Positions 30,888-64,000 of a stretch of DNA of 64,000 bases are shown one piece after another. The position numbers and the translations under genes were made by a program. Positions within the stretch are counted from its first letter, which is position 1, and every line of letters starts with the position of its first letter. Under the pieces are notes generated by a model, which did not search any database, had not been told where the DNA came from, and worked only from the letters and a program-made list of their open reading frames with translations. The DNA is from Lobosporangium transversale (lineage: Eukaryota), in NCBI RefSeq assembly GCF_002105155.1, contig NW_019028996.1, forward strand, positions 682,001 through 746,000, in the 5' to 3' direction.

Positions 30888-31106
30888 TGCAAAAGTCAAG
30901 GTAGTGTTCTAGGGGGATCTAAGGGTGCAATAAAGGTATCTTTATTCAGGGGGAACTATGCTACAGAACTAGATAGAAAAGTAGACCTATTTATACTAGT
31001 TAATATCCTGTTGCAAGGAATGCTCTACAAATATGGGCGAAATACTATGTTGCACAAAATTATTATAGTGATTTCGCTTGCATCCTTCCCGTCATGAAGA
31101 AACCTA

Positions 31107-33866
31107 TTATCTTGTTTTTCTTGAAGCCTCAAAGACGGCAAGCGCCTCTTTAGCGTTTGCGAGCGAAGATTTTGTTTCCCAAGTGGCTTCATCTAATGGA
31201 TAGCCTTTCCAAAGAACGAGCCACTTAGGAGTTTTGCCAAACATTTTGAAGTCAATGATTTTGTCGACTTCATACTCCTCTTCTCCATCTACAAGCTCGG
31301 GGGCAGGGCGTGGTGGTAAGCGGTCGCCGAATTCACGAGGTGACTCAATATAGGGGCGAAGCAGATCGGCATTAAAGACTGGATGTTGATGCATGTCAGG
31401 CGGTAGTTCCAGCTTGTAGGCATTTTCATTGACCTTCGAAATGATCTTGTAAGGGCCTATGTACTCAGGTTCCAGTTTCTGCGACGGCCTATTTTTATGT
31501 CCCGCGACAGAGATGTTTTCCGAGCTTAAGAGCACCATGTCACCCACAGCAAACGTAGCAGGCCTGCGAGTTTTGTCCGCTTGGGCCTTTTGCCTATTCT
31601 GCGCTTCGATGATGGCATCCTGAGCTAGCGCCAAATTCATCGACTGGGTTCGAACAAAATCACTGACAGCCGGAACATTGGTATCAGGTGGCTTTAAAAG
31701 AGATCCAGGGACTAGTGGATGGTGACCATAGTTCAGAAAGAATGGGGAGAAGCCTGTCGTAGGATTGACAGAGTTGTTGTATGCGAACTCCATCATAGGC
31801 AGTAAAAGATCCCAGTCGTTTTGCTTGTACGATATGTAAGAGCGGAGCATTTCTTCTAATGTTCTGTTGGCGCGCTCTGTTTGTCCGTCTGATTGTGGAA
31901 GGAAGGCAGTAGACATGTTAAGTTTGGTGCCCATGAGCTTCATCAACGTTGTCCAGAACTTGCCGGTGAAACGTGAATCTCTATCTGACACAATTGTCCG
32001 AGGCATGCCGTGCAGTCTAAAAACATTGTCGAAAAAGAGTCGTGCAACATCAGAGGCAGTGTCGGTAGTTCGGCTAGCGCAGAAATGAACTTGCTTGGAC
32101 AGTTTGTCCACAAAGACCGTAATCGCGTCAAAACCTCTGGCTGTCTTCGGAAGCTTGACAATGAAGTCCATTGTTACAGTATCCCATCGTTGGCTTGGAA
32201 TTGCCAAAGGTTGGAAAAGCCCTGCAGGAGGCTTTAGTGAAGGCTTGTTACGCTGGCATTGCTCACAGGAAGCAATGTATTTTTTTATATCCCTCGCCAT
32301 GCGTGGCCAAAAATATGTTCGTCGCATGCTACTGTACGTTTTATCGAGTCCCAAGTGGCCTGATATAGGAGCGTCGTGAGCGTCATGCAAGAGTTGTGAA
32401 CGGAGTCCGTCGTCCTTGGGTATGCAGAGGCGAGGGCCTTGTCCAGCGTTGATCCAGAGTAGACCATCTACCACGAAGTAACGATCCGGGGTAGAGGCAT
32501 CCTTATACTGATGCACGAGGGGACCTAGAATTGGATCGTGTAGGTAGCAACTGGCTAGTTGTTTTCGAATGCCAGGGTCTAGATTGATAACCAAGGAGTT
32601 CAAAGTAGTAGGTGTAGCCTCCAAGTCCTTGAGGTCCGGTCTTCGTGAAAGAGCATCAGGGACGACGTTATCTTTACCAGGTTTATACTTGAATACGAAA
32701 TCATACTCTTGAAGCAACTCCATCCATCTTGCTTGTCTGCGAGTCAAGTTCGGCTGGCTAGGAAAATGTTGTAGAGTGGCATGGTCGGTATAAACGACAA
32801 AGTGAGAACCATCAAGGTAGTATCGCCATGTCTTCAGAGCATGCACCACAGCCAGCAGTTCTTGTTCGTGTGTAGGATAGTTGCGTTCCGCTGGGTTGAG
32901 CTTGCGTGAAGTAAAAGCTACTGGTCGTGATTCACCATTTTGGTCCGTCTGGAACAAGACAGCACCAATTGCAAAGCCTGAAGCGTCTGTTTCGACTGCT
33001 GTAGAGAGGGCAGGATCGAATATCCTAAGAACTGGTGCTGAGCTCACTGCTCTTTTCAAAGTCTCAAAGGCGTCTTGTTGAGATTTTCCCCAGTGGAATT
33101 CCTTATTGCAGCCTAACAATTGTGTGAGGGGAAGAGCAATATCAGCGTAATGAGAAATGTACTGATGGTAAAAATTAGTCAAACCAAGGAATTGCATCAC
33201 ATGTCGTTGGGTTGTTGGTACTGGCCATTCCCTTATTGCCTTGACAAGTCCGCCATTCGTCTTGAGTCCATCCTTGGATATGACATGGCCTAGGAACTCA
33301 GTCTCTTCCTGCATGAAGGAATACTTGGATAATTTACAATAAAGCCCAGCTTGACGCAAGAGGGAGAGTACTTTTCGGATGTGCTCTAAGTGATCTTTCT
33401 CGTTATCGGAGTAAATTAAAATATCATCGAGATACACAACAACACATTTATCAAGAAGTGGATCAAGTACGTTACGCATCATAGTCGAGAACGCTGCAGG
33501 TGCATTTGTAAGACCGAAAGGTACGACGTTAAACTCGTAGTGGCCATAGCGAGTTCGGAACGCGGTCTTGTGTTTATCATCAGGATGGACACGCATTTGA
33601 TGATAGCCCGAGAGTAGATCCAGCTTGGTAAAACATTTAGCTGTTCTGAATCTGTCGATCAATTCATCGATCCGTGGTAAGGGGTACCTGTTTTTCTTTG
33701 TGATCTTGTTCAGGCCCCGATAATCAACACACATTCGAAGCGAGCCATCCTTTTTCTTCACAAAGAGGACTGGAGCACCGTATGGTGAGGTGCTCGGTGA
33801 GATTAATCCTTTTTGTAAAAGATCAGTTAGTGCAAGCGAAATCACTCTAATAATTATGTGCAACAT
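31107..33866 (-). CDS. pol: Gypsy pol, RT-RNase H-integrase-chromodomain part
   Basis: [34 protein letters not shown] finger, [28 protein letters not shown]. Confidence 0.95.
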
Positions 33867-33999
33867 AGTATTTCGCCCATATTTCTAGAGCATTCCTTGC
33901 AACAGGATATTAACTAGTATAAATAGGTCTACTTTCTATCTAGTTCTGTAGCATAGTTCCCCCTGAATAAAGATACCTTTATTGCACCCTTAGATCCCC

Positions 34000-35175
34000 C
34001 TAGAACACTACCTTGACTTTTGCAGTTAGCTGCTTCTTCAGTTCATCAAGCTCAGCGATCGACAATCTGATGACAGGTCGGACAGGTGGGTCAGCATAAG
34101 GGTCAGTCTCTATACGCATGCTATCACCTCTGTCAGGGGGAAGGCCATCAGGAAGCGTTGTAGGAAAGACATCAGGGAATTCGACTTGAACGATTTGCTT
34201 GATAGAGTCCGGTAGTTCAGAACTACTGCTAGAGACAGGTACTGGAACTCGAACTTGGGCGAGGAATACAGAGGCATCAGGTTCCGAGGCAACGGTAAGG
34301 AAGTTAAGAGCAGATATGACGGAAGATCGCTGTCTAGGCTTCCTGTCGATGCCAGTGCAAGGCCACAAGACCGGGGTACCTTGGTATTCAAAATGCAGAT
34401 CATTTGTTCGCCAATTGATGCGAGGGTTGATATCCGTCAGCCATGGTTTACCCAAAATTAGGTCGTATTTGGATAGAGGATAAACAATGGCGTTGATTTT
34501 ATCCTGATACGCGTTGCGGGCGAGGGTGAACGTGGCTGTGTGCTGAGCAATTGTCTCGGTACCGTTGGGAAGAATGACAGGAATGGGTCTACCCTCAATT
34601 AGCGGAACATGTGTGTTCTCGCAGAAAGAGGAACTTATGACATTGCCTTCGGCCCCTCCATCTACAAGAATGCGCGCAGGTCGACCATTCACTGCTCCAA
34701 TGAAAGTAAGGAGTCGGCGAGAGTTTTTATGTTTGGCATAGGTAAGGCTGAAGGATTGAAGGCGAATTTCGTTACGACAATGGGAGTGGCGATTGGATGA
34801 ACTAGGGGTAGATGAATGAGTGGAAGTGAGTGAAGTGGAAACAGTGAAAGGATCAGTGGAGGGGAAAATAGGGTCGGAGAGGGGATTGTTTTTTAGCAAT
34901 GAGGAATGAGTAGGGGAATGGGGATCAGGATGAGGTGAATACTTAGAGAGTAGATGTAAGGAAGTAGATGCAGTGGGAGCAATAGAGTGATCAGAAAGGG
35001 GCATGGATGTTATATTTGTGCACAAAGGCTCTATGACCTCGGTTCCGGCATCTGAAACAACGCCCCTCACGAACGCAACGTTCTCGTTCAGCTGCTGTGA
35101 GCTTGGGTAGCGAGCTTGGCTTGGAGTGGTTTCTGTTTGGTCGTTGCTGATGGAGAGAGGTGTACAGGTTGGCAA
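34000..35175 (-). CDS. Gypsy pol, aspartic protease part (ends inside the inserted LTR)
   Basis: ILVDGGAEGNVIS and YDLILGKPWL. Confidence 0.85.
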   Translation of the reverse strand: MPTCTPLSISNDQTETTPSQARYPSSQQLNENVAFVRGVVSDAGTEVIEPLCTNITSMPLSDHSIAPTASTSLHLLSKYSPHPDPHSPTHSSLLKNNPLSDPIFPSTDPFTVSTSLTSTHSSTPSSSNRHSHCRNEIRLQSFSLTYAKHKNSRRLLTFIGAVNGRPARILVDGGAEGNVISSSFCENTHVPLIEGRPIPVILPNGTETIAQHTATFTLARNAYQDKINAIVYPLSKYDLILGKPWLTDINPRINWRTNDLHFEYQGTPVLWPCTGIDRKPRQRSSVISALNFLTVASEPDASVFLAQVRVPVPVSSSSSELPDSIKQIVQVEFPDVFPTTLPDGLPPDRGDSMRIETDPYADPPVRPVIRLSIAELDELKKQLTAKVKVVF

Positions 35176-35911
35176 CCAACATTCTCATGTTATCGAGATC
35201 CATTGGTGTAGGGCCAGAATTATTCTCATGATGGGGTGATAAGGCGTTCGGGGTAGCGGATACAGGGGTGGCATCGATGGGATGTAGAATACTGTGGACA
35301 ATGGTCGCCTGCTCAATGGCATCGTCCAACGTCTCTGGCTGTCTAAGTCTTACCTGCTTGCTTGTTTCGGGCTCAAGGCCTAGCATGTATTTTTGCAAAG
35401 CAGAGTCTTTGTCGAGATTTGTAGCCAGACGTAGGTGGCTTCTAAACTTGCTCGTATATTCTGCCACACTCATCCTTCCCTGACGAAGTTTATCCAACGC
35501 TCGGCGAGCTGCATTCGCAGAATCTGGAGGGGTGAACTGACGGAGGAATGCTTTACGGAAGTCAGCCCAAGGTGTATCGAGATTCAACCCGGAATCTCTC
35601 CACCATGCCTTGGCTTCGCCATTGAGACTGAGGACAGCGTATCGAACCCATTTGGATGGCGTGAGTGTGACAATAGTGTAATACTCCTCCAGGCTGTCGA
35701 CAAAGTTTAAGGCTGCAACAGCGTTAATAGCTCCTTCGTAAGGCGTAGGCTTCTGTGGCTTTAGGACCGTGGCGAGGGTTCTGGCTAGGTCATTCTCAGC
35801 GGCTTCGTTGACTTTAGCAGTAGAGAGGGCCTGATTAAAAGCAGTAGCTATGGCTTCGCGAATGTTCAGAGGAAGATCGATGGACGAAAGGGCGTTATTC
35901 AAGTGTTCCAT
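34991..35911 (-). CDS. gag: Gypsy gag
   Basis: LNGEAKAWW, LRQGRMSVAEY, GPTPMDLD, zinc knuckle CFRCRNRGH. Confidence 0.92.
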   Translation of the reverse strand: MEHLNNALSSIDLPLNIREAIATAFNQALSTAKVNEAAENDLARTLATVLKPQKPTPYEGAINAVAALNFVDSLEEYYTIVTLTPSKWVRYAVLSLNGEAKAWWRDSGLNLDTPWADFRKAFLRQFTPPDSANAARRALDKLRQGRMSVAEYTSKFRSHLRLATNLDKDSALQKYMLGLEPETSKQVRLRQPETLDDAIEQATIVHSILHPIDATPVSATPNALSPHHENNSGPTPMDLDNMRMLVANLYTSLHQQRPNRNHSKPSSLPKLTAAERERCVREGRCFRCRNRGHRAFVHKYNIHAPF

Positions 35912-36555
35912 GGCGAGGGGTGAAATTCAATGGTAATTGTAGTTCTCTGGGGGTGGTCGTGGTTTCCTTTGCTACCAATGCAAAAGTCAAGGTAGTGTTC
36001 TAGGGGGATCTAAGGGTGCAATAAAGGTATCTTTATTCAGGGGGAACCATGCTACAGAACTAGATAGAAAAGTAGACCTATTTATACTAGTTAATATCCT
36101 GTTGCAAGGAATGCTCTAGAAATATGGGCGAAATACAATGTTGCACAAAATTATTATAGTGATTTCGCTTGCAACGCGACTTGGCTTGACAGGCAAACTA
36201 TGCATGGAGGAATGAGTGAAGGAAATGAGCGGAACAAATTAATCAAGCACACGTGATCTTTTTCAGATTCGAATCAGACAAAAGTCATTCATCAATTCAT
36301 GAGCTAGACATTGCTTGCTGTTCGTGACAAAATATCTAATTAACTTTGAAAGTGCATTTATTTTCATTACACATCTATCACAAAAGGCTGTAATAAAGCT
36401 GACCATTTCAAGCTACATTTAAATGTAATGTACTAAGTGCTCAAAGTCCCCAATATACAAAGTAACAGCTATTCAAACAGATCTGCAAAATTATAAAGCC
36501 TATGTCAACAAAATGGGACGTCCGTACAATGTTGGTAAAAAAAATAGAATTGCTG

Positions 36556-44525: not shown

Positions 44526-45253
44526 GACTACAGTGGTCATCAAAAGTCATTCAATGAATTAGGAATTTCGACATTCTCATTCCTTTCCCAATTTGATCTT
44601 GCTTGTCGCTAATGAAACTTACGTAGCGAGTTCGACCATCGACAATGTCACTCCTACTACAATGTCAATGAGCTCCTGTAGCTAATTGAAAATTTAGATG
44701 AATGCCAATTATTGGCATCTCATTGAATGCCATTTGAAGAAAATCGGGAGCTTTGCTTTATTTGTTTTTTTTTCTGTTCTTCAGTAATGTGTACGACCTC
44801 CTTTCTTGCGATGTAGCTTCTCTACCCTTCGTGGCTGTCACGAACAGCAAGCAATGTCTAGCTCATGAATTGATGAATGACTTTTGTCTGATTCGAATCT
44901 GAAAAAGATCACGTGTGCTTGATTAATTTGTTCCGCTCATTTCCTTCACTCATTCCTCCATGCATAGTTTGCCTGTCAAGCCAAGTCGCGTTGCAAGCGA
45001 AATCACTATAATAATTTTGTGCAACATTGTATTTCGCCCATATTTCTAGAGCATTCCTTGCAACAGGATATTAACTAGTATAAATAGGTCTACTTTTCTA
45101 TCTAGTTCTGTAGCATGGTTCCCCCTGAATAAAGATACCTTTATTGCACCCTTAGATCCCCCTAGAACACTACCTTGACTTTTGCATTGGTAGCAAAGGA
45201 AACCACGACCACCCCCAGAGAACTACAATTACCATTGAATTTCACCCCTCGCC

Positions 45254-46174
45254 ATGGAACACTTGAATAACGCCCTTTCGTCCATCGATCTTCCTCTGAA
45301 CATTCGCGAAGCCATAGCTACTGCTTTTAATCAGGCCCTCTCTACTGCTAAAGTCAACGAAGCCGCTGAGAATGACCTAGCCAGAACCCTCGCCACGGTC
45401 CTAAAGCCACAGAAGCCTACGCCTTACGAAGGAGCTATTAACGCTGTTGCAGCCTTAAACTTTGTCGACAGCCTGGAGGAGTATTACACTATTGTCACAC
45501 TCACGCCATCCAAATGGGTTCGATACGCTGTCCTCAGTCTCAATGGCGAAGCCAAGGCATGGTGGAGAGATTCCGGGTTGAATCTCGATACACCTTGGGC
45601 TGACTTCCGTAAAGCATTCCTCCGTCAGTTCACCCCTCCAGATTCTGCGAATGCAGCTCGCCGAGCGTTGGATAAACTTCGTCAGGGAAGGATGAGTGTG
45701 GCAGAATATACGAGCAAGTTTAGAAGCCACCTACGTCTGGCTACAAATCTCGACAAAGACTCTGCTTTGCAAAAATACATGCTAGGCCTTGAGCCCGAAA
45801 CAAGCAAGCAGGTAAGACTTAGACAGCCAGAGACGTTGGACGATGCCATTGAGCAGGCGACCATTGTCCACAGTATTCTACATCCCATCGATGCCACCCC
45901 TGTATCCGCTACCCCGAACGCCTTATCACCCCATCATGAGAATAATTCTGGCCCTACACCAATGGATCTCGATAACATGAGAATGTTGGTTGCCAACCTG
46001 TACACCTCTCTCCATCAGCAACGACCAAACAGAAACCACTCCAAGCCAAGCTCGCTACCCAAGCTCACAGCAGCTGAACGAGAACGTTGCGTTCGTGAGG
46101 GGCGTTGTTTCAGATGCCGGAACCGAGGTCATAGAGCCTTTGTGCACAAATATAACATCCATGCCCCTTTCTGA
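45254..46174 (+). CDS. gag: Gypsy gag
   Basis: Protein identical to 34991-35911. Confidence 0.92.
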   Translation: MEHLNNALSSIDLPLNIREAIATAFNQALSTAKVNEAAENDLARTLATVLKPQKPTPYEGAINAVAALNFVDSLEEYYTIVTLTPSKWVRYAVLSLNGEAKAWWRDSGLNLDTPWADFRKAFLRQFTPPDSANAARRALDKLRQGRMSVAEYTSKFRSHLRLATNLDKDSALQKYMLGLEPETSKQVRLRQPETLDDAIEQATIVHSILHPIDATPVSATPNALSPHHENNSGPTPMDLDNMRMLVANLYTSLHQQRPNRNHSKPSSLPKLTAAERERCVREGRCFRCRNRGHRAFVHKYNIHAPF

Positions 46175-47165
46175 TCACTCTATTGCTCCCACTGCATCTA
46201 CTTCCTTACATCTACTCTCTAAGTATTCACCTCATCCTGATCCCCATTCCCCTACTCATTCCTCATTGCTAAAAAACAATCCCCTCTCCGACCCTATTTT
46301 CCCCTCCACTGATCCTTTCACTGTTTCCACTTCACTCACTTCCACTCATTCATCTACCCCTAGTTCATCCAATCGCCACTCCCATTGTCGTAACGAAATT
46401 CGCCTTCAATCCTTCAGCCTTACCTATGACAAACATAAAAACTCTCGCCGACTCCTTACTTTCATTGGAGCAGTGAATGGTCGACCTGCGCGCATTCTTG
46501 TAGATGGAGGGGCCGAAGGCAATGTCATAAGTTCCTCTTTCTGCGAGAACACACATGTTCCGCTAATTGAGGGTAGACCCATTCCTGTCATTCTTCCCAA
46601 CGGTACCGAGACAATTGCTCAGCACACAGCCACGTTCACCCTCGCCCGCAACGCGTATCAGGATAAAATCAACGCCATTGTTTATCCTCTATCCAAATAC
46701 GACCTAATTTTGGGTAAACCATGGCTGACGGATATCAACCCTCGCATCAATTGGCGAACAAATGATCTGCATTTTGAATACCAAGGTACCCCGGTCTTGT
46801 GGCCTTGCACTGGCATCGACAGGAAGCCTAGACAGCGATCTTCCGTCATATCTGCTCTTAACTTCCTTACCGTTGCCTCGGAACCTGATGCCTCTGTATT
46901 CCTCGCCCAAGTTCGAGTTCCAGTACCTGTCTCTAGCAGTAGTTCTGAACTACCGGACTCTATCAAGCAAATCGTTCAAGTCGAATTCCCTGATGTCTTT
47001 CCTACAACGCTTCCTGATGGCCTTCCCCCTGACAGAGGTGATAGCATGCGTATAGAGACTGACCCTTATGCTGACCCACCTGTCCGACCTGTCATCAGAT
47101 TGTCGATCGCTGAGCTTGATGAACTGAAGAAGCAGCTAACTGCAAAAGTCAAGGTAGTGTTCTAG
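45990..47165 (+). CDS. Gypsy pol, protease part
   Basis: ILVDGGAEG; one substitution versus copy 1 (YDKH vs YAKH). Confidence 0.85.
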   Translation: MPTCTPLSISNDQTETTPSQARYPSSQQLNENVAFVRGVVSDAGTEVIEPLCTNITSMPLSDHSIAPTASTSLHLLSKYSPHPDPHSPTHSSLLKNNPLSDPIFPSTDPFTVSTSLTSTHSSTPSSSNRHSHCRNEIRLQSFSLTYDKHKNSRRLLTFIGAVNGRPARILVDGGAEGNVISSSFCENTHVPLIEGRPIPVILPNGTETIAQHTATFTLARNAYQDKINAIVYPLSKYDLILGKPWLTDINPRINWRTNDLHFEYQGTPVLWPCTGIDRKPRQRSSVISALNFLTVASEPDASVFLAQVRVPVPVSSSSSELPDSIKQIVQVEFPDVFPTTLPDGLPPDRGDSMRIETDPYADPPVRPVIRLSIAELDELKKQLTAKVKVVF

Positions 47166-47334
47166 GGGGATCTAAGGGTGCAATAAAGGTATCTTTATTC
47201 AGGGGGAACTATGCTACAGAACTAGATAGAAAGTAGACCTATTTATACTAGTTAATATCCTGTTGCAAGGAATGCTCTAGAAATATGGGCGAAATACTAT
47301 GTTGCACATAATTATTAGAGTGATTTCGCTTGCA
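47141..47334 (-). mobile_element. Antisense solo LTR-A inside pol
   Basis: TGCA...TGCA with TSD CTAAC; removal restores KKQLTDLLQK in frame. Confidence 0.95.
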
Positions 47335-50058
47335 CTAACTGATCTTTTACAAAAAGGATTAATCTCACCGAGCACCTCACCATACGGTGCTCCAGTCCTC
47401 TTTGTGAAGAAAAAGGATGGCTCGCTTCGAATGTGTGTTGATTATCGGGGCCTGAACAAGATCACAAAGAAAAACAGGTACCCCTTACCACGGATCGATG
47501 AATTGATCGACAGATTCAGAACAGCTAAATGTTTTACCAAGCTGGATCTACTCTCGGGCTATCATCAAATGCGTGTCCATCCTGATGATAAACACAAGAC
47601 CGCGTTCCGAACTCGCTATGGCCACTACGAGTTTAACGTCGTACCTTTCGGTCTTACAAATGCACCTGCAGCGTTCTCGACTATGATGCGTAACGTACTT
47701 GATCCACTTCTTGATAAATGTGTTGTTGTGTATCTCGATGATATTTTAATTTACTCCGATAACGAGAAAGATCACTTAGAGCACATCCGAAAAGTACTCT
47801 CCCTCTTGCGTCAAGCTGGGCTTTATTGTAAATTATCCAAGTATTCCTTCATGCAGGAAGAGACTGAGTTCCTAGGCCATGTCATATCCAAGGATGGACT
47901 CAAGACGAATGGCGGACTTGTCAAGGCAATAAGGGAATGGCCAGTACCAACAACCCAACGACATGTGATGCAATTCCTTGGTTTGACTAATTTTTACCAT
48001 CAGTACATTTCTCATTACGCTGATATTGCTCTTCCCCTCACACAATTGTTAGGCTGCAATAAGGAATTCCACTGGGGAAAATCTCAACAAGACGCCTTTG
48101 AGACTTTGAAAAGAGCAGTGAGCTCAGCACCAGTTCTTAGGATATTCGATCCTGCCCTCTCTACAGCAGTCGAAACAGACGCTTCAGGCTTTGCAATTGG
48201 TGCTGTCTTGTTCCAGACGGACCAAAATGGTGAATCACGACCAGTAGCTTTTACTTCACGCAAGCTCAACCCAGCGGAACGCAACTATCCTACACACGAA
48301 CAAGAACTGCTGGCTGTGGTGCATGCTCTGAAGACATGGCGATACTACCTTGATGGTTCTCACTTTGTCGTTTATACCGACCATGCCACTCTACAACATT
48401 TTCCTAGCCAGCCGAACTTGACTCGCAGACAAGCAAGATGGATGGAGTTGCTTCAAGAGTATGATTTCGTATTCAAGTATAAACCTGGTAAAGATAACGT
48501 CGTCCCTGATGCTCTTTCACGAAGACCGGACCTCAAGGACTTGGAGGCTACACCTACTACTTTGAACTCCTTGGTTATCAATCTAGACCCTGGCATTCGA
48601 AAACAACTAGCCAGTTGCTACCTACACGATCCAATTCTAGGTCCCCTCGTGCATCAGTATAAGGATGCCTCTACCCCGGATCGTTACTTCGTGGTAGATG
48701 GTCTACTCTGGATCAACGCTGGACAAGGCCCTCGCCTCTGCATACCCAAGGACGACGGACTCCGTTCACAACTCTTGCATGACGCTCACGACGCTCCTAT
48801 ATCAGGCCACTTGGGACTCGATAAAACGTACAGTAGCATGCGACGAACATATTTTTGGCCACGCATGGCGAGGGATATAAAAAAATACATTGCTTCCTGT
48901 GAGCAATGCCAGCGTAACAAGCCTTCACTAAAGCCTCCTGCAGGGCTTTTCCAACCTTTGGCAATTCCAAGCCAACGATGGGATACTGTAACAATGGACT
49001 TCATTGTCAAGCTTCCGAAGACAGCCAGAGGTTTTGACGCGATTACGGTCTTTGTGGACAAACTGTCCAAGCAAGTTCATTTCTGCGCTAGCCGAACTAC
49101 CGACACTGCCTCTGATGTTGCACGACTCTTTTTCGACAATGTTTTTAGACTGCACGGCATGCCTCGGACAATTGTGTCAGATAGAGATTCACGTTTCACC
49201 GGCAAGTTCTGGACAACGTTGATGAAGCTCATGGGCACCAAACTTAACATGTCTACTGCCTTCCTTCCACAATCAGACGGACAAACAGAGCGCGCCAACA
49301 GAACATTAGAAGAAATGCTCCGCTCTTACATATCGTACAAGCAAAACGACTGGGATCTTTTACTGCCTATGATGGAGTTCGCATACAACAACTCTGTCAA
49401 TCCTACGACAGGCTTCTCCCCATTCTTTCTGAACTATGGTCACCATCCACTAGTCCCTGGATCTCTTTTAAAGCCACCTGATACCAATGTTCCGGCTGTC
49501 AGTGATTTTGTTCGAACCCAGTCGATGAATTTGGCGCTAGCTCAGGATGCCATCATCGAAGCGCAGAATAGGCAAAAGGCCCAAGCGGACAAAACTCGCA
49601 GGCCTGCTACGTTTGCTGTGGGTGACATGGTGCTCTTAAGCTCGGAAAACATCTCTGTCGCGGGACATAAAAATAGGCCGTCGCAGAAACTGGAACCTGA
49701 GTACATAGGCCCTTACAAGATCATTTCGAAGGTCAATGAAAATGCCTACAAGCTGGAACTACCGCCTGACATGCATCAACATCCAGTCTTTAATGCCGAT
49801 CTGCTTCGCCCCTATATTGAGTCACCTCGTGAATTCGGCGACCGCTTACCACCACGCCCTGCCCCCGAGCTTGTAGATGGAGAAGAGGAGTATGAAGTCG
49901 ACAAAATCATTGACTTCAAAATGTTTGGCAAAACTCCTAAGTGGCTCGTTCTTTGGAAAGGCTATCCATTAGATGAAGCCACTTGGGAAACAAAATCTTC
50001 GCTCGCAAACGCTAAAGAGGCGCTTGCCGTCTTTGAGGCTTCAAGAAAAACAAGATAA
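47299..50058 (+). CDS. pol: Gypsy pol, RT-RNase H-integrase-chromodomain part
   Basis: Same 919-aa ORF as copy 1; the first ~12 codons come from the inserted LTR. Confidence 0.95.
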
Positions 50059-51295
50059 TAGGTTTCTTCATGACGGGAAGGATGCAAGCGAAATCACTAT
50101 AATAATTTTGTGCAACATAGTATTTCGCCCATATTTGTAGAGCATTCCTTGCAACAGGATATTAACTAGTATAAATAGGTCTACTTTTCTATCTAGTTCT
50201 GTAGCATGGTTCCCCCTGAATAAAGACACCTTTATTACACCCTTAGATCCCCCTAGAACACTACCTTGATTTTTGCACGCGTCTCCTAGTTTTCTAGCTC
50301 CGTGAATAGCTCCAAGGATTCTAGAAGAGCTATAAACCAATAACCAAGACTTATAGTGCCAAGGAACCTTGCAATAAGATTGCACCAGATATCTTCCTCG
50401 GATCCTGTGTATTAAGTTAACTCAACACTTGAAGTTCCGCATATGGTAAAAGTCCTTAGGAAATATTTGAGTAAGCTTTATTTAGAGTTCTTGAAGCGCG
50501 TCTCCGCTTCAGTCAAACAAGTATAAATATGATAGATTTGTAACATAGTAAACCTCAGTCTGCAATAAAACTATTCTTGAATCTCCTAAGCTCATTTTTG
50601 TTCCTAAATCACTTACCTTCTCTTGCAATTGTCCTGTCAGTCCTTGACGGTAATTGCACGCGAGGTTGATACGGGTATATTTAGATCCATTCTGGCAGTT
50701 CAAGAATACATCAGATCGAGCAGTGCTCCTATTCGAACCATTCGAATCGAATTCGAATAGATATCAGGATTCGAATGCTATTCGAACCGCTCGAATGATT
50801 CGAGCCATTCGAACCGTTCGAATGATTCGAACCATTCGAACCATTCGACATTCGAACCATTCGACATTCGAACCGTTCGAATGATTCGAACCATTCGAAC
50901 CATTCGACATTCGAACCGTTCGAATGATTCGAACCATTCGACCCTCGAATCATTCGAACCATTCGAACCATTCGACACTCGAACCATTCGAACCATTCGA
51001 TACACGATAGGAAATGGTAATTCTAAACTTGTGTTTGTAGTTTTCATTATGTTTCATCTCCTGCCTTATTTCTCTTTCCTTCTTTTTCCTCTTTTGCCTT
51101 TCTTCCTGTGGTTCCCCGAAATTTAATCAAATAAAAGACTACCCCTTTTAACTTATTCATGCATGATTTGGTTTGAACTTGTTGCTCTTTTTTTTTTTTT
51201 TTTCCTAATTTCCTAATTCCCACGCCAATTAGTAGTGTTATCTTAATCTTTTTCTTTCCGTTTTTTTTTTTTTCTTTCATTTACTGATTATTTTC

Positions 51296-54431: not shown

Positions 54432-54441
54432 TTGAGACATA

Positions 54442-56069
54442 CACTATCATGCAAAACTGATTCAATAATTCATTCCCATGTGCATTTCTTTTTTTCATTC
54501 CTAGAAACCGTATATGCATACACCACTCATACTTTGGTTTAATAAAGCTCCCGTCTTCTTCTACGTCCTAGTGATGCGTTGTGACATTAGCTTGTCTCAT
54601 TTGAATAGCTAATGACTTTTTTGTTCATGCAGGTCATTGAATCAGTTTCACATGTGGTCTAAAATGTTGCCCATGGCAACTTTTGGACGTCATTTAATGC
54701 CAGTAAAAAAAGGACTTTTCTCTCTTTCCTTTATGAACACTTGCTTAACTCTTAACTATACCTTCACAGAATATGAGACCCACTCCACAAAGGAAAGTCA
54801 ACGAAGCCAGGAGGTTAATGATGGGAGGCATGTCTACTAGAGAAACTGCTGCTAGTGTTGGTATATCAATAGCGACGGCCACCAGGATCTATGCACATAA
54901 TAAGGAGTACATGCCAGTCAATAAAGGCGGTCGACCAAGGAAAGTACCTAGAGGTATCATGCAGTATCTTAAGGTGAACATGAAACGAGGTACACTCAAG
55001 TCTGCAGTTGAGGCCACCGCCAGAGCCAACCAGCTCATACCAGCGGCTGTTTCTGAGACCACCGTTAGACGACGGCTCAAGGAGTTAGGATTGACAGCAA
55101 AGAGGCGTGTACATAAGCCAGCTTTACGTCGACGACATATTAAAGCTCGTTTGCATTTTATCAAAAAGTATAAGGAATGGACTCTGGAAGATTGGAAAAA
55201 GGTTATTTGGTCAGATGAATCGAAAATAAACCGAATCTGCTCTGATGGCGTGCAGTGGATCTGGGGCGACAATCCGGGACGCCTCACTCGCAGGTCGGTG
55301 CAAGGCACTGTCAAGTTTGGGGGTGGTAATGTTAAAGTGTGGTCATGCTTCTCATGGCACGGACCTGGATACATTGCAAAGATTGACAATAATATGGACG
55401 CACAACTTTACATCAAACTACTGCAGGAGGATCTACAGATGTCGCTTGGTGACTGGGGCCTAACTAAAAGCGATATCGTCTTTCAGCACGACAATGACTC
55501 GAAGCACACGGCGAAGATTGTTAGGAAGTATTTGGAGTCAGTACATCTGACAGAAGAGGAAGGTACACTTCTAGAGTGGCCAGCACAATCCCCTGACCTC
55601 AACCCTATTGAACACATGTGGGCAGAATTGGATAGGCGGCTCTCTAGGTATCCGGAGCGAGCTAAGAGCTGTGATGAACTATGGGAGCGAATATCGGTTG
55701 AATGGTACAGGATCCCAGTGGACTTCTGCCGCAAACTCATCATAGATATCCATAAGAGACTCCAAGCTGTCAGTGATGCCCATGGTTGGAATACTATCTA
55801 TTGATGTAAGGTTATGGCTCACAAAAGAATAAAGATCTTTGGCCACCGAATGGGCACATGTGAAACTGATTCAATGACCTGAATGAACAAAAAAGCCATT
55901 AGCTATTCAAATGAGACAAGCTAATGTCACAACGCATCACTATGACGTAGAAGAAGACGGGAGCTTTATTAAACCAAAGTATGAGTGGTGTATGCATATA
56001 CGGTTTCTAGGAATGAAAAAAAGAAATGCACATGGGAATGAATTATTGAATCAGTTTTGCATGATAGTG
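54442..56069 (+). mobile_element. Intact Tc1-like transposon with 215-bp TIRs
   Basis: TA TSD; TIRs 54442-54656 and 55855-56069. Confidence 0.95.
54773..55804 (+). CDS. Tc1 DDE transposase, 343 aa, uninterrupted
   Basis: GRPRK, WSDESK, FQHDNDSKH, WPAQSPDLNPIEHMW. Confidence 0.95.
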   Translation: MRPTPQRKVNEARRLMMGGMSTRETAASVGISIATATRIYAHNKEYMPVNKGGRPRKVPRGIMQYLKVNMKRGTLKSAVEATARANQLIPAAVSETTVRRRLKELGLTAKRRVHKPALRRRHIKARLHFIKKYKEWTLEDWKKVIWSDESKINRICSDGVQWIWGDNPGRLTRRSVQGTVKFGGGNVKVWSCFSWHGPGYIAKIDNNMDAQLYIKLLQEDLQMSLGDWGLTKSDIVFQHDNDSKHTAKIVRKYLESVHLTEEEGTLLEWPAQSPDLNPIEHMWAELDRRLSRYPERAKSCDELWERISVEWYRIPVDFCRKLIIDIHKRLQAVSDAHGWNTIY

Positions 56070-56073
56070 TATA

Positions 56074-56420
56074 CAGTGCTCCTATTCGAACCTTTCGAAT
56101 CGAATTTCACTGATATCGAATTCGATTCGAATGAGGTAAGCTCAAATTCGATTCGAATTCGATTAGATAACAAAATTCGAATGCTATTCGAATGGTTCGA
56201 ATGATTCGAGCGAACTATTGGCACAATAGTAAATGATAATTTTAAACTTTTTTTTTTATTTTTTTTTGATTGGGTGTAAAGTACAAGGACCATACTTTCG
56301 CTACGCGTAACCAGAGGCCCTATTCGAACCATTCGAACCATTCGAATCGAACCAGGATATGGCTTATTTGAATCGATTCGAATTTATCACGATTCGAATT
56401 CGAATCGAATAGGAGCACTG
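56074..56420. mobile_element. 347-bp non-autonomous hAT (MITE) nested in the parent hAT
   Basis: Same TIRs as the parent; TSD GACATATA, left copy split by the Tc1 insertion. Confidence 0.9.
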
Positions 56421-56721
56421 GACATATATAGTTTTCTAAATAAGAGTAAAAGTATCTCTCAAAACTAGCAAATCAAATAAAACTTTTTACAATACAACTC
56501 TGAACCAGGGTTATGAACTATATCACCCCTACCACTTCACAATTCAAACCACCACGCTCCTATTCGAATCATTCGAACCATTCGACACTCGAACCATTCG
56601 AACCATTCGAACCATTCGACACTCGAACTATTCGAACCATTCGAACCATTGGAATCGAACCAGGATATGGCTTATTCGAAGCTATTCGAATTCGAACCGT
56701 TCGATTCGAATAGGAGCACTG

Positions 56722-58608
56722 AGTAGGTGTAGCCTCCGAGTCCTTGAGGTCCGGTCTTCGTGAAAGAGCATCAGGGACGACGTTATCTTTACCAGGTTTA
56801 TACTTGAATACGAAATCATACTCTTGAAGCAACTCCATCCATCTTGCTTGTCTGCGAGTCAAGTTCGGCTGGCTAGGAAAATGTTGTAGAGTGGCATGGT
56901 CGGTATAAACGACAAAGTGAGAACCATCAAGGTAGTATCGCCATGTCTTCAGAGCATGCACCACAGCCAGCAGTTCTTGTTCGTGTGTAGGATAGTTGCG
57001 TTCCGCTGGGTTGAGCTTGCGTGAAGTAAAAGCTACTGGTCGTGATTCACCATTTTGGTCCGTCTGGAACAAGACAGCACCAATTGCAAAGCCTGAAGCG
57101 TCTGTTTCGACTGCTGTAGAGAGGGCAGGATCGAATATCCTAAGAACTGGTGCTGAGCTCACTGCTCTTTTCAAAGTCTCAAAGGCGTCTTGTTGAGATT
57201 TTCCCCAGTGGAATTCCTTATTGCAGCCTAACAATTGTGTGAGGGGAAGAGCAATATCAGCGTAATGAGAAATGTACTGATGGTAAAAATTAGTCAAACC
57301 AAGGAATTGCATCACATGTCGTTGGGTTGTTGGTACTGGCCATTCCCTTATTGCCTTGACAAGTCCGCCATTCGTCTTGAGTCCATCCTTGGATATGACA
57401 TGGCCTAGGAACTCAGTCTCTTCCTGCATGAAGGAATACTTGGATAATTTACAATAAAGCCCAGCTTGACGCAAGAGGGAGAGTACTTTTCGGATGTGCT
57501 CTAAGTGATCTTTCTCGTTATCGGAGTAAATTAAAATATCATCGAGATACACAACAACACATTTATCAAGAAGTGGATCAAGTACGTTACGCATCATAGT
57601 CGAGAACGCTGCAGGTGCATTTGTAAGACCGAAAGGTACGACGTTAAACTCGTAGTGGCCATAGCGAGTTCGGAACGCGGTCTTGTGTTTATCATCAGGA
57701 TGGACACGCATTTGATGATAGCCCGAGAGTAGATCCAGCTTGGTAAAACATTTAGCTGTTCTGAATCTGTCGATCAATTCATCGATCCGTGGTAAGGGGT
57801 ACCTGTTTTTCTTTGTGATCTTGTTCAGGCCCCGATAATCAACACACATTCGAAGCGAGCCATCCTTTTTCTTCACAAAGAGGACTGGAGCACCGTATGG
57901 TGAGGTGCTCGGTGAGATTAATCCTTTTTGTAAAAGATCAGTTAGTGCAAGCGAAATCACTCTAATAATTATGTGCAACATAGTATTTCGCCCATATTTC
58001 TAGAGCATTCCTTGCAACAGGATATTAACTAGTATAAATAGGTCTACTTTCTATCTAGTTCTGTAGCATAGTTCCCCTGAATAAAGATACCTTTATTGCA
58101 CCCTTAGATCCCCCTAGAACACTACCTTGACTTTTGCAGTTAGCTGCTTCTTCAGTTCATCAAGCTCAGCGATCGACAATCTGATGACAGGTCGGACAGG
58201 TGGGTCAGCATAAGGGTCAGTCTCTATACGCATGCTATCACCTCTGTCAGGGGGAAGGCCATCAGGAAGCGTTGTAGGAAAGACATCAGGGAATTCGACT
58301 TGAACGATTTGCTTGATAGAGTCCGGTAGTTCAGAACTACTGCTAGAGACAGGTACTGGAACTCGAACTTGGGCGAGGAATACAGAGGCATCAGGTTCCG
58401 AGGCAACGGTAAGGAAGTTAAGAGCAGATATGACGGAAGATCGCTGTCTAGGCTTCCTGTCGATGCCAGTGCAAGGCCACAAGACCGGGGTACCTTGGTA
58501 TTCAAAATGCAGATCATTTGTTCGCCAATTGATGCGAGGGTTGATATCCGTCAGCCATGGTTTACCCAAAATTAGGTCGTATTTGGATAGAGGATAAACA
58601 ATGGCGTT
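56722..58608 (-). mobile_element. Gypsy copy 3, internal fragment (end of protease, solo LTR 57946-58138, RT-RNase H)
   Basis: Near-identical to 32609-34494; bounded by a hAT TIR on the left and a PLE pseudo-LTR on the right. Confidence 0.93.
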
Positions 58609-58663
58609 TGATAAGTAGGATGGGTTTTTTTGTGAAAAAGTGGAAAAAGTGACTGAGAGTGAG

Positions 58664-58722
58664 AAAGAAGACTGCGGGACAAGTGCTTGTTTCGATCTTT
58701 TCTCTTCAGCCTTGTCTTCTTT
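58664..58722 (-). ncRNA. Type I hammerhead ribozyme, copy 1
   Basis: aaagaagac-aa-gg CUGAAGA ga-aaaga-uc GAAA caag-ca-cuug UC cc-gca-gucuucuuu. Confidence 0.88.
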
Positions 58723-59060
58723 TTATACTTTTTTCACGCCTCTCGGACTCTCGGGAGAGAGGGTGAACGGTAACCCAAAAAGGAATCATTATCCAAATCG
58801 GGTCTCATCCGGAAACTCCTAGATTGTTTCAGATTGAGTCAGTTATGACGTAAGATCTAAAATTAATCTAAGTATAGATTACAAATAATTTATCCGAACG
58901 GTTAGACTAAAAAAGGAAGGTCTAAGTCCGAAAAAATCCTAGGATATATGTATCATTTCCGTGGTACGCGTCGACCTAGCAAACAGGTTTATTTGGAGCC
59001 AGCAAACCAGTTATTTGTGGCTTTCTACTCCTTAACTAGGGTCACGTGACAAAATTTATT

Positions 59061-59197
59061 TTTAGGTATCTATTTTTAGGGTCTATTTTTAGGGTTTTTT
59101 AGGGTTTTTTAGGGTTTTTTAGGGTTTTTAGGGTTTTTTAGGGTTTTTTAGGGTTTTTAGGGTTTTTTAGGGTTTTTTAGGGTTTTTTAGGGTTTTT
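59061..59197 (+). repeat. Telomere-like tract ending in about 10 regular T5-6AGGG units
   Basis: Mostly TTTTTTAGGG from 59095. Confidence 0.93.
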
Positions 59198-59251
59198 GAT
59201 AAGTAGGATGGGTTTTTTTGTGAAAAAGTGGAAAAAGTGACTGAGAGTGAG

Positions 59252-59310
59252 AAAGAAGACTGCGGGACAAGTGCTTGTTTCGATCTTTTCTCTTCAGCCT
59301 TGTCTTCTTT
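59252..59310 (-). ncRNA. Type I hammerhead ribozyme, copy 2
   Basis: Identical to copy 1. Confidence 0.88.
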
Positions 59311-59648
59311 TTATACTTTTTTCACGCCTCTCGGACTCTCGGGAGAGAGGGTGAACGGTAACCCAAAAAGGAATCATTATCCAAATCGGGTCTCATCCGG
59401 AAACTCCTAGATTGTTTCAGATTGAGTCAGTTATGACGTAAGATCTAAAATTAATCTAAGTATAGATTACAAATAATTTATCCGAACGGTTAGACTAAAA
59501 AAGGAAGGTCTAAGTCCGAAAAAATCCTAGGATATATGTATCATTTCCGTGGTACGCGTCGACCTAGCAAACAGGTTTATTTGGAGCCAGCAAACCAGTT
59601 ATTTGTGGCTTTCTACTCCTTAACTAGGGTCACGTGACAAAATTTATT

Positions 59649-59749
59649 TTTAGGTATCTATTTTTAGGGTCTATTTTTAGGGTTCTATTTTAGGGTTTTT
59701 TTAGGGTTATTTTTAGGGTTTTCTTTTAGGGTTATTTTTAGGGTTAGGG
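59649..59749 (+). repeat. Element-encoded degenerate telomere-like tract
   Basis: Irregular TnAGGG units ending TTAGGG; same sequence at 63821-63921. Confidence 0.9.
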
Positions 59750-59905
59750 TCAAGGAGGGTCAGCTCTGGCCTATACCATGAACCTGAGAAAACTCCTAAA
59801 AAATCTAAAGAAAACTTACTAAGTCTAAAAAACCGGACCTATTTTGTCGGGGATGAGGGCTAGTTATAATATAAGATACAGAAGAGATCTCATTGAACTA
59901 GTCAT

Positions 59906-61411
59906 CTACAATCGACTCCTTATTGGGGCGGATTGGAGAATCTTTTTATTATAGGTGTTCAACTGGTTGCGCAGGTTGGAGCCTTTATAAATTATCCATG
60001 TGGTTTGTGTATTCTCATAACGGGCAGGTTTGAGGGTATGGATATCTCGTAGAATCATACGTCCAAACTGTTCAAGTTTGTCACGTCCAGGGATGTTATG
60101 GAGGAACATTTTTTTGATAATAGTATCATTTTTCTGAGACGAGGGTGCCGGGTACAAAAGAGTATTCCGTTCATCGTATGAGTGTAATCTGAGTTGATTG
60201 TTGATTACATGTGAGGGGTAGTTTCTATTAAGAAGATGTTGGGCAAATTGTGCTGTGGCATGGGTGTGGAAAGAAGACTGACTAGAGTTTCTAATTAGTC
60301 TTTGGTTTTCACCATTAATCCAGTTAAAAACATATTTCCTAGGGTAGTATGTATCTGGATCAGTGTATAGGTGTTTATTAACGGGTTTGTCGAAAGGAGC
60401 AATAGTAAATCGGGTTGGACTAGTATTGTTATCGACAGAAATAAGAAGGTCGAGCATAACTACTTGTTGACCATTGTTACCATGGTCGATAGTGATATTA
60501 AGACTTTGACAAGAGGCATAAATCTGATGAAGTTTAATGTCAATGTATGGTTTCAAAAGATTGAATGTCTCTTTAGACCAGGGAAGGTTATCATGTTTGG
60601 TAGTTCTGATTATGGCAAAGCCATCATCTATATACCGGAACAGGGTGATGTCAAAGAAATCGAGTTTATAGAAAAACATTGGGGAATTAGTGTCAACTGG
60701 AAGGTTGTCAGGAAAAACTCCATGGAATTGTTGTTGTTTCTCTACGCAGCATGCAAAGAGGCGGGCTATGGTGGGTGCCATGGGAGTTCCCATAGCTAAG
60801 CCTTTGACTTGTCTGTAATTATTTGTAAGGTCAGAGACAAGGCAGTTCTTATTAACCCATTCTGCGAGTTTCAGACATATTTGGATTTCATAATTGTAAG
60901 AATGATTGCAGAAGTAGTGTAGTATGGTTTTTCTGGCTTCTTCAAAGTCGATGTTACCATACATGTTGATGACGTCGAAAGCTGCTAATGAGTAATGGCA
61001 GTAAGGATCAAAGTCAAAATTTTCTAGATAACGTATTAGTGTGGGGGTGTCGGGAAGATCTCTAGGGAACTCATTAAGTAGAGGGCGCAGGTTTCTATCG
61101 ACAAACTGACTAATAGTGTGTGTTATCCAAGGGAAAGAGGGGACTATAGGTCTAGCACCGGGTGGTGACTTATGTATTTTAGGTAAAAGATACATAACTG
61201 GGACAGTATAGAAGTTAGGATTGGTTCTAACATTATCTCTTATTAGTTTAGCTTCTGAGAGTAATTTATTTTTAATTCTAAGAGGACTAAGATTGACTAT
61301 AGAAAAGAGTGAGTTTATCATATTGTCAATGGAGAACGAAGGGCACGGGACATAACAGGAAGTATCTGTTAGAAGTTTCGTAGTCTGGGATGTATACCAG
61401 TCTAGGTCCAT
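59906..61411 (-). CDS. Penelope-like reverse transcriptase with no GIY-YIG endonuclease; true N-terminus lies further upstream
   Basis: YLLPKIHK..RPIV, FDVINMYGNI, QVKGLAMGTPMAP, FRYIDDGF, MLDLLI, KPVNKHLY; ORF ends after the thumb with no GIY..YIG. Confidence 0.93.
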   Translation of the reverse strand: MDLDWYTSQTTKLLTDTSCYVPCPSFSIDNMINSLFSIVNLSPLRIKNKLLSEAKLIRDNVRTNPNFYTVPVMYLLPKIHKSPPGARPIVPSFPWITHTISQFVDRNLRPLLNEFPRDLPDTPTLIRYLENFDFDPYCHYSLAAFDVINMYGNIDFEEARKTILHYFCNHSYNYEIQICLKLAEWVNKNCLVSDLTNNYRQVKGLAMGTPMAPTIARLFACCVEKQQQFHGVFPDNLPVDTNSPMFFYKLDFFDITLFRYIDDGFAIIRTTKHDNLPWSKETFNLLKPYIDIKLHQIYASCQSLNITIDHGNNGQQVVMLDLLISVDNNTSPTRFTIAPFDKPVNKHLYTDPDTYYPRKYVFNWINGENQRLIRNSSQSSFHTHATAQFAQHLLNRNYPSHVINNQLRLHSYDERNTLLYPAPSSQKNDTIIKKMFLHNIPGRDKLEQFGRMILRDIHTLKPARYENTQTTWIIYKGSNLRNQLNTYNKKILQSAPIRSRL

Positions 61412-61498
61412 AATAGTGAGTCCTAAGTTTTTTATCAGCAGGGAATGATAATTTATTCGAGGTCATTAGATTTCTGTAGGATTTTTTTTTTTTTTTTA

Positions 61499-62752
61499 TT
61501 AATTATGGTTTGTAGCATCGAACAGAACATTAGCTAGATTAATATCTAGTTTATTAATATTCCTACAAAGTTGGTTACGCAATTTCTTTAGTTCTGAGCT
61601 CAGAACAACATAGTTGGGAGGTTTATGTATATTGAAATTGACTCCTTTATTTAAGACTTGAAGAATATCATGGGGGATGGATTGTACGGAAGACATATTG
61701 TTGACTCCGACAAAATCATGTAAATCTACTTTTTTTGTTTCTGAGGGGATGGGGCTTTTTTCACGGGGCCTTTTCCTTTCTTTACATGGGTGGTTTTCTT
61801 GGAGGACGTTGGGGGACCACCTTTCTTCTTGTCTTTCTTCGCCATCGATGGGCCTTTTGGTCCTTTGTATTTGTTGGTGTCGTTCTGTCGACGTGATGGC
61901 TTGGGTTTGCTTGGCTTCTTCTTCGAGGCGTCCTTCTTGGTATTCTAGAGGGAAAGTAGAGTTGATCTTAGAATAGATTATATTTAATCGTGGAGCAAAC
62001 CAAAGGGAAACAATTATCTTGAATACCTTTAATCCAAGATTTAATTGCTGGAATTCTGCAGTGGCTCGTAATACTTGCACTTGAGCAGAAAACTCAATAG
62101 CAGTGGCACGAATCAGCTTGTAGGTGAAGTCTTTACCCAGATTATTCAGATGAGAATTGTTTTCAACGGCCACAAGGGCAGATGAAAGGGTGTCCGCTAG
62201 CTGTCTGGGGAGGGTGTCATTGAGTTCACTTTGGCATTGTTGGATGATATTTGCTTTGTCAGCTTTAATGGCCGATACTAACAAATTGTCAAACGAAGTG
62301 CTAAGTGTAGCAAGGACGTCCTTTGACAGGGTAACACGGTTATTGTTGACAGTAAGATGTCCCCAATAGCCTAGTTGTGTCTTAGCGTTGACTTCACGCA
62401 GAATCTTCTGAGCCATTCGGATTTTATCCAAAAGAATGGCCGCCTTATTGACAAATTTGCTTAAGATGTCTGCGGCAACCCTGTCAGTCATCGTTCCCTT
62501 TTTGAAAGAGGGAAGATAGGAACCAGGGTTCAGAGAGGTGTCACTATTCCCAATATGATTATTGAGACGAGCGACGAGCTGCTCGAGGGTGGGAAGGTCT
62601 GCCGGTGCAGTCCCTCCTCCCATCTCGGCATCGGCATCGATCATAGCCTGACCTGGAACTTGTTGACCTGGGGTGACTTGGAAGACATCCTGGTTTCCAC
62701 GGGCAGAGCTTGACGATGAGGAGGGGCCGGGGGCAGCGTGAGTATTGACCAT
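61499..62752 (-). CDS. PLE ORF1 (helical protein; probable intron 61945-62026 gives a basic tail with stop at 61726-61728); the unspliced frame runs into the RT N-terminal region
   Basis: ATG 62752 just after the pseudo-LTR; unspliced C-terminus VNNMSS..LQVLNKGVNF resembles the pre-RT motif of PLEs. Confidence 0.7.
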   Translation of the reverse strand: MVNTHAAPGPSSSSSSARGNQDVFQVTPGQQVPGQAMIDADAEMGGGTAPADLPTLEQLVARLNNHIGNSDTSLNPGSYLPSFKKGTMTDRVAADILSKFVNKAAILLDKIRMAQKILREVNAKTQLGYWGHLTVNNNRVTLSKDVLATLSTSFDNLLVSAIKADKANIIQQCQSELNDTLPRQLADTLSSALVAVENNSHLNNLGKDFTYKLIRATAIEFSAQVQVLRATAEFQQLNLGLKVFKIIVSLWFAPRLNIIYSKINSTFPLEYQEGRLEEEAKQTQAITSTERHQQIQRTKRPIDGEERQEERWSPNVLQENHPCKERKRPREKSPIPSETKKVDLHDFVGVNNMSSVQSIPHDILQVLNKGVNFNIHKPPNYVVLSSELKKLRNQLCRNINKLDINLANVLFDATNHN

Positions 62753-62830
62753 CTTGAGAGGAACTTGAGGGTTTTTGATAAGTAGGATGGGTTTTTTTGT
62801 GAAAAAGTGGAAAAAGTGACTGAGAGTGAG

Positions 62831-62889
62831 AAAGAAGACTGCGGGACAAGTGCTTGTTTCGATCTTTTCTCTTCAGCCTTGTCTTCTTT
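62831..62889 (-). ncRNA. Type I hammerhead ribozyme, copy 3 (5' pseudo-LTR of the full element)
   Basis: Identical to copy 1; predicted cleavage after GUC, between 62845 and 62844. Confidence 0.88.
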
Positions 62890-63227
62890 TTATACTTTTT
62901 TCACGCCTCTCGGACTCTCGGGAGAGAGGGTGAACGGTAACCCAAAAAGGAATCATTATCCAAATCGGGTCTCATCCGGAAACTCCTAGATTGTTTCAGA
63001 TTGAGTCAGTTATGACGTAAGATCTAAAATTAATCTAAGTATAGATTACAAATAATTTATCCGAACGGTTAGACTAAAAAAGGAAGGTCTAAGTCCGAAA
63101 AAATCCTAGGATATATGTATCATTTCCGTGGTACGCGTCGACCTAGCAAACAGGTTTATTTGGAGCCAGCAAACCAGTTATTTGTGGCTTTCTACTCCTT
63201 AACTAGGGTCACGTGACAAAATTTATT

Positions 63228-63368
63228 TTTAGGTATCTATTTTTAGGGTCTATTTTTAGGGTTCTATTTTAGGGTTTTTTTTAGGGTTATTTTTTAGGGT
63301 TTTTTTTAGGGTTATTTTTAGGGTATAGGGTTTTTTTATTTTTAGGGTTATTTTTAGGGTTATTTTAG
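63228..63368 (+). repeat. Degenerate telomere-like tract between pseudo-LTRs 3 and 4
   Basis: Starts like the encoded tract, then diverges into irregular TTATTTTTAGGG-type units. Confidence 0.9.
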
Positions 63369-63423
63369 GATAAGTAGGATGGGTTTTTTTTGTGAAAAAG
63401 TGGAAAAAGTGACTGAGAGTGAG

Positions 63424-63482
63424 AAAGAAGACTGCGGGACAAGTGCTTGTTTCGATCTTTTCTCTTCAGCCTTGTCTTCTTT
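63424..63482 (-). ncRNA. Type I hammerhead ribozyme, copy 4
   Basis: Identical to copy 1. Confidence 0.88.
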
Positions 63483-63820
63483 TTATACTTTTTTCACGCC
63501 TCTCGGACTCTCGGGAGAGAGGGTGAACGGTAACCCAAAAAGGAATCATTATCCAAATCGGGTCTCATCCGGAAACTCCTAGATTGTTTCAGATTGAGTC
63601 AGTTATGACGTAAGATCTAAAATTAATCTAAGTATAGATTACAAATAATTTATCCGAACGGTTAGACTAAAAAAGGAAGGTCTAAGTCCGAAAAAATCCT
63701 AGGATATATGTATCATTTCCGTGGTACGCGTCGACCTAGCAAACAGGTTTATTTGGAGCCAGCAAACCAGTTATTTGTGGCTTTCTACTCCTTAACTAGG
63801 GTCACGTGACAAAATTTATT

Positions 63821-63921
63821 TTTAGGTATCTATTTTTAGGGTCTATTTTTAGGGTTCTATTTTAGGGTTTTTTTAGGGTTATTTTTAGGGTTTTCTTTTA
63901 GGGTTATTTTTAGGGTTAGGG
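63821..63921 (+). repeat. Element-encoded degenerate telomere-like tract of the next copy
   Basis: Same as 59649-59749 and followed by the same tcaaggagggtcagctctgg 3' UTR. Confidence 0.9.
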
Positions 63922-64000
63922 TCAAGGAGGGTCAGCTCTGGCCTATACCATGAACCTGAGAAAACTCCTAAAAAATCTAAAGAAAACTTACTAAGTCTAA

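Follow-up and report, generated by a model that had tools for sequence, protein, structure and literature searches.

A probable splice switch between ORF1 and an ORF1-RT fusion in a Penelope-like retroelement of Lobosporangium transversale

Telomerase has its closest relatives among the Penelope-like elements. The accessible parts of PMC8557442 describe terminal repeats, a hammerhead motif and telomeric repeats for Athena and Coprina elements, as found here, list conserved introns and, as an option, a frameshift with a pseudoknot for Penelope-like elements, and call the significance of their intron retention unknown. Coprina is presented as a single-ORF group, with two ORFs in Coprina-1_Alen, and the available portion of that description mentions neither an internal intron nor a spliced second product (PMC13159263). 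In the barley element BARE1, removal of a 104-nt intron shifts the frame, and the spliced RNA yields Gag only (excerpt of PMC3735527); in Arabidopsis copia elements, such splicing is coupled to early termination (excerpt of PMC5580714).

The window, which is the whole stretch of 64,000 nucleotides analysed from L. transversale, contains on its minus strand an endonuclease-less Penelope-like retroelement, probably of Coprina type. Its ORF1 starts with the ATG at 62752. The features are listed below in the direction of the element.

63353-63922, minus strand: additional copy of the terminal repeat (pLTR)
62765..63331, minus strand: pLTR upstream of ORF1, with a hammerhead-like core at 62876 and telomere-like repeats
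62027..62752, minus strand: ORF1 exon 1, 242 codons, common to both products, with long helices predicted at residues 90-247
61945..62026, minus strand: spliceosomal intron of 82 nt (3n+1, phase 0), without stop in the RT frame and skipped by a contig of sequencing run X7
61726..61944, minus strand: dual-coded segment, which in the spliced frame encodes the Lys-rich ORF1 tail (72 aa) up to the TAG and in the RT frame a Gln/Glu-rich linker
61729..61735, minus strand: A-AAA-AAG heptamer, in phase, directly 5' of the stop, not conserved
61515..61728, minus strand: N-terminal part of the RT (GVNN..LNKGVNFN), conserved, in the frame of ORF1 exon 1
61433..61514, minus strand: four stops and an A16 run, in a segment matched by no long contig
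59906..61432, minus strand: RT body from the DKN motif to the thumb, no endonuclease domain detected, model nearest to telomerase RT
58607..59828, minus strand: 3' end with two further pLTR copies, hammerhead-like cores at 59297 and 58709

The structure model of the RT (75 sequences, pLDDT 90.8) appears to resemble telomerase RT most: the best three Foldseek matches are TERT (E = 3e-8 to 1e-7, TM 0.40-0.45), and Prp8 and group II intron RT rank close behind. Pfam gave no match in two ORFs of the window and no GIY-YIG match in four full-length relatives, although it misses the RT as well, and a PDB sequence search returned no match. The four pLTR copies share 97-99% identity with one another, and each has a hammerhead-like core (CTGA.GA..GAAAC) adjoining TTTTTAGGG-type repeats. 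The same core is present in two metagenomic relatives, L001 and L002 (see below). Its base pairs are all retained (17 of 17), with no covariation among three aligned copies, and Rfam reported neither a hammerhead match at E<=5 nor any other relevant match. The copies in the window read CTGAAGA in place of CTGATGA, and the motif at L002:14-60 has GTA, not GTC, at the predicted cleavage triplet.

The 3' end (58607..59828) includes a (TTTTTAGGGT)n array at 59086-59197 and is 97% identical to 62774-64000. The window ends within terminal repeats, and the orientation of the G-rich strand is compatible with a location at a chromosome end with the ORF pointing inward. The last terminal repeat borders on a Ty3/gypsy copy that is truncated at its 5' end, the two overlapping by a few letters at 58607-58610, and the element looks as if it had been added to a break inside this LTR element. 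Other mobile elements are found in the window. In all three Ty3/gypsy copies, the 195-nt terminal repeat of the copy recurs in inverted orientation between protease and RT (33831-34025, 47140-47334 and 57946-58140); these inverted repeats are flanked by a CTAAC duplication, and several GT..AG cuts could restore the frame. Two Ty3/gypsy copies in inverted orientation (30887-36329 and 44836-50278) are 100% identical over 5.4 kb, which points to very recent activity. A Tc1/mariner-type transposon at 54439-56072, which has an open DDE_3 ORF and inverted repeats of 218 nt, sits in the end of a hAT-like ORF, and arrays of 9/16-nt units rich in TTCGAA (50778-51043 and 56320-56692) both lie beside mobile elements.

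The initial annotation had pointed out an 82-nt GT..AG segment at 62026-61945, and this segment is indeed present. It reads AAG/GTATTC...CCCTCTAG, is 67% AT and has a branch-like CTAAG 27 nt upstream of its end; the donor GTATTC and the branch CTAAG are moderate matches only. Its removal gives, as had been predicted, a product of 314 aa with a very basic tail, ending in PQKQKK before a TAG at 61728-61726. The 72-aa tail contains 27 Lys and Arg and only 3 Asp and Glu. An NCBI model labelled Lobosporangium transversale and named "hypothetical protein" has exactly the sequence of this spliced product; under the splice switch proposed below, such gene models would be ORF1 isoforms of a transposon. 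The tail is disordered in a structure model of ORF1 (pLDDT 66.5), for which a fold search gave no match at E<=0.001. Retention of the intron leaves 417 codons open in the frame of the RT ORF; the translation of this frame across the intron includes the VFKIIVSLWFAPR region. That this is also the -1 frame, which reads KVDLHDFVGVNN, was confirmed from the sequence. An AATAAA at 61651-61646, within the LNKG codons and 77 nt past the ORF1 stop, is identical in the window, L001 and L002 (3/3), and is possibly a weak candidate for an early poly(A) signal.

We compared six sequencing runs, of which X7 is RNA by the guess of the tool and five are of DNA type (two of these share one sample). The intron is spliced out in the probable RNA data set. 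One X7 contig (depth 84.9) skips exactly the 82 letters from 61945 to 62026, with ends CT..AC on the plus strand, and so contains the very joint between 62027 and 61944 that had been proposed for inspection. A second X7 contig represents a sibling family, about 85% alike, and is cut at the corresponding position. Neither skip is seen in any of the five DNA-type runs, in which the intron is covered unbroken. This evidence comes from assembled contigs of one study; it shows that the junction exists and says nothing on its level. Contigs lose rare forms and variants, and RNA ends cannot be seen in them. In X7, the intron interior is covered by no contig and depth is absent in 10 of 30 bins, mostly in the RT, and the spliced contig stops at 61642 within adapter letters, so that it is of no use for levels or ends. 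The sibling family itself, which occurs in L. transversale at lower depth and shares the splice site, was seen in X4, X6, X2 and X7 (61624-62364).

A metagenome scan of 463 candidate stretches yielded two relatives, L001 and L002, and a scan of 128 stretches of viral contigs yielded none. Both relatives share about 50% identity with the element in the window and have a 3n+1 intron at the same codon (AAG/GTAAT..CTAAT..YAG, 100 nt in L001 and 94 nt in L002). Their spliced tails, of 80 and 85 aa respectively, are Lys-rich and both end in KKK-stop, and their unspliced sequences are open throughout in a single frame (1000 codons in L001, 1028 in L002). Of six further NCBI proteins, all labelled as other Mortierellaceae, five are complete models that share the tail of the spliced product, and the intron-frame residues W-[FL]-x-P-R are kept in four close relatives, the window included. 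Among distant relatives, Leu-Thr or Leu-Ile lies 38-62 residues ahead of the RT anchor in 45 of 51 cases, compared with 57 of 306 control windows, a pattern that was devised after viewing, concerns proteins only and may reflect protein conservation only. These dipeptides are compatible with CTAAC/CTAAT and precede a Gln/Glu-rich linker; the long relatives had been preselected for a length of at least 908 aa. The pattern in these distant proteins suggests that other fungi have the same layout.

With a ribosomal slip at the end of the tail as the sole way to the RT, nothing would keep stops out of the RT frame in the intron and the tail. In all three DNA loci, this frame has no stop across the intron and the tail. 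The introns taken singly are weak evidence, being open in 11-27% of shuffles. Among tail codons that are able to end in T and stand before AA, AG or GA, none of 62 ends in T when the three loci are pooled, compared with 27 of 88 at the remaining tail positions (P = 1×10−7) and 54 of 138 in exon 1 (P = 4×10−11); these pooled P values are optimistic because the three loci are related. In the window alone, 0 of 16 such codons end in T, compared with 19 of 50 in exon 1 (P = 0.003) and 6 of 27 in the rest of the tail (P = 0.07, not significant). Codon-randomised tails have 7.5-12.3 stops in the RT frame, versus the observed 0 in each of the three loci. The codon-usage sample of L001 overran the RT stop, and the counts of T-ending codons are unaffected. 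Tail identity among the three loci is 41-63% in the spliced frame and 37-54% in the RT frame. At invariant tail positions, 12 of 15 codons are identical in all three elements, versus a background of 0.27-0.32, and the 100 nt past the ORF1 stop are at background level (6 of 20 codons). These patterns support codon-level selection on the RT frame of the tail, with synonymous sites constrained. As the tail avoids T-ending codons where they would create RT-frame stops, the unspliced RNA likely encodes ORF1-RT.

We consider that the 82-nt intron probably acts as a switch, in which spliced RNA gives the 314-aa ORF1 with its Lys-rich tail and unspliced RNA would give an ORF1-RT fusion of about 960 aa. 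Translation of spliced RNA would produce the ORF1 protein ending in the Lys-rich tail, translation of the unspliced RNA would produce the fusion, and the efficiency of splicing would set the excess of ORF1 over RT. The basic tail may bind the element's own RNA, and the unspliced RNA could double as the template copied onto chromosome ends. This role as template would account for the persistent presence of the intron, which is never lost. A broader proposal, on which we regard the evidence as evenly poised, is that what is called the "single ORF" of fungal Coprina generally encodes two proteins, that a conserved 3n+1 intron together with a dual-coded basic tail takes the place of the Athena frameshift, and that only intron-containing RNA is copied, because RT would be made from unspliced RNA alone, which alone may reach the 3' ribozyme. 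If this is true, intron retention in this branch of Penelope-like elements is explained without an antisense template.

The initial annotation had proposed two routes to the fusion, with splicing and frameshifting together governing the ratio of ORF1 to RT. The splicing half of this proposal is supported by the junction contig, by conservation and by the codon-level selection, whereas the frameshifting half is not, as the heptamer is not conserved and no structure follows it. The second route would be a functional -1 shift at A-AAA-AAG on spliced RNA, giving an ORF1-tail-RT fusion in addition to that from retention. In its favour, the heptamer at 61735-61729 is in phase and abuts the stop, and a shift there would enter the RT frame. 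Words of the form XXXYYYZ seldom occur in phase, at 20 of 4463 codon positions across 10 ORFs of the window, and for some Penelope-like elements the available part of PMC8557442 draws an optional frameshift, with a pseudoknot, behind ORF1. The word had been called canonical, but motifs of the type X_XXA_AAG are reported to be the least efficient class in eukaryotes, and substantial -1 shifting needs A, C or U as the last base (PMC4066793), which here is G. None of the three other elements for which DNA was read keeps it: immediately ahead of the stop, L001 has GAAGAAA, L002 has GAAGAAG and the sibling family has GAAAAAG (hand-read at a loose end, 61738). The letters of X8 at the heptamer were ignored since this run differs from the window by C>T and G>A changes only. 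L001 has one different in-phase slip word 42 nt upstream, and L002 has none. Slip-compatible residues near the junction occur in one of the eight nearest RT-frame proteins having the anchor (9 examined) and in none of 51 distant proteins with a different anchor (120 examined). Eukaryotic -1 sites are expected to have a stable stem-loop or pseudoknot 5-9 nt downstream; the RNA 3' of this heptamer shows no structure (z = +0.48, -0.79 and -1.28 for 100, 75 and 55 nt), its best pseudoknot candidate is equalled by 58 of 100 shuffles, and synonymous sites there are at background (the 6 of 20 codons given above). Half of the Lys codons in the tail are AAA (13 of 25), so that AAAAAAG arises easily, and the heptamer is probably an incidental by-product of a tail ending in Lys-Lys-stop. 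Low-level slippage may occur at it; a functional -1 route is unlikely, and we regard the combination of two routes as very improbable. This negative result removes an attractive but unsupported claim.

It could also be that the unspliced RNA serves as template only, and that RT is made either by internal initiation or from an RNA spliced at an alternative 3' site that keeps the frame. An alternative acceptor near the main one would likewise need a tail open in the RT frame, and no unspliced RNA is seen among the contigs. Yet no second splice junction is found in X7, the RT frame runs through the intron without a stop in each of the three DNA loci, the intron-encoded W-[FL]-x-P-R residues are kept in the close relatives, and internal initiation has no need for an open tail; we find this explanation improbable. 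A different objection concerns the window copy. In the window as given, the intron-retained frame meets its first stop at 61501 and has four stops between 61514 and 61433, so that neither route reaches the RT there and the fusion claimed in the initial annotation, which made no mention of these stops, fails for the sequence as it stands. This copy might be truly dead at 61433-61514 and supply ORF1 only, with the switch working in other copies or nowhere; the stops are present in the window sequence, and contigs do lose rare variants. Against this, the contigs of X1, X2, X4, X6 and X8 all depart from the window at about 61515, and one X2 contig bridges the gap with 130 letters in place of 82, which keeps the frame and adds 16 codons, giving the spacing seen in relatives. 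This replacement is known from its length and from two 30-letter ends, which, hand-translated, are in frame and resemble the YKP and LIIGPADKN motifs of the relatives. As the contigs do not support the segment, the break is probably an assembly error. The terminal repeats, moreover, are 97-99% identical, and a dead copy would touch the status of a single copy and not the mechanism; this reading seems to us extremely improbable. The intron switch thus remains our preferred explanation. If RT comes only from unspliced RNA, it offers a direct and testable reason for intron retention.

We have found no description of a splice switch in Penelope-like elements in the literature searched, as far as the accessible texts go (including PMC8557442, PMC3846280, PMC6431247, PMC5408684 and 10.64898/2026.07.22.740005); the primary Athena papers and supplements lie outside this set, and a prior description is possible. 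Like Coprina in the available parts of PMC8557442 and PMC13159263, the element has one long ORF, a TERT-like RT with DKN motif and thumb, no GIY-YIG match, tandem terminal repeats, a hammerhead-like core and telomere-like repeats. Unlike Coprina as described in those parts, it has an internal intron and a second, spliced product. As with Athena-type elements, both ORF1 and ORF1-RT are needed from one element at the same junction region, but the pseudoknot and conserved slip site of the Athena-type frameshift, known here through the description in the accessible text of PMC8557442, are lacking.

The closest parallel in expression is with BARE1 and EVD/Ty1-copia, in which, according to the excerpts of PMC3735527 and PMC5580714, a short intron likewise lies in a single ORF past the structural domain, and splicing shifts the frame into a stop and leaves the structural protein only. 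There the unspliced RNA encodes the enzyme fusion, a role that the unspliced RNA would also have here. BARE1 and EVD are LTR elements with Gag and virus-like particles, unlike the Penelope-like element, and in the BARE1 excerpt the stop comes three residues past Gag, whereas here the spliced frame adds a conserved basic tail of 72-85 aa, so that about 220-250 nt would be under selection in two frames. The switch would thus represent convergence with Ty1/copia expression in an unrelated class: by analogy, it appears to work like copia-type splicing without being a member of that class.
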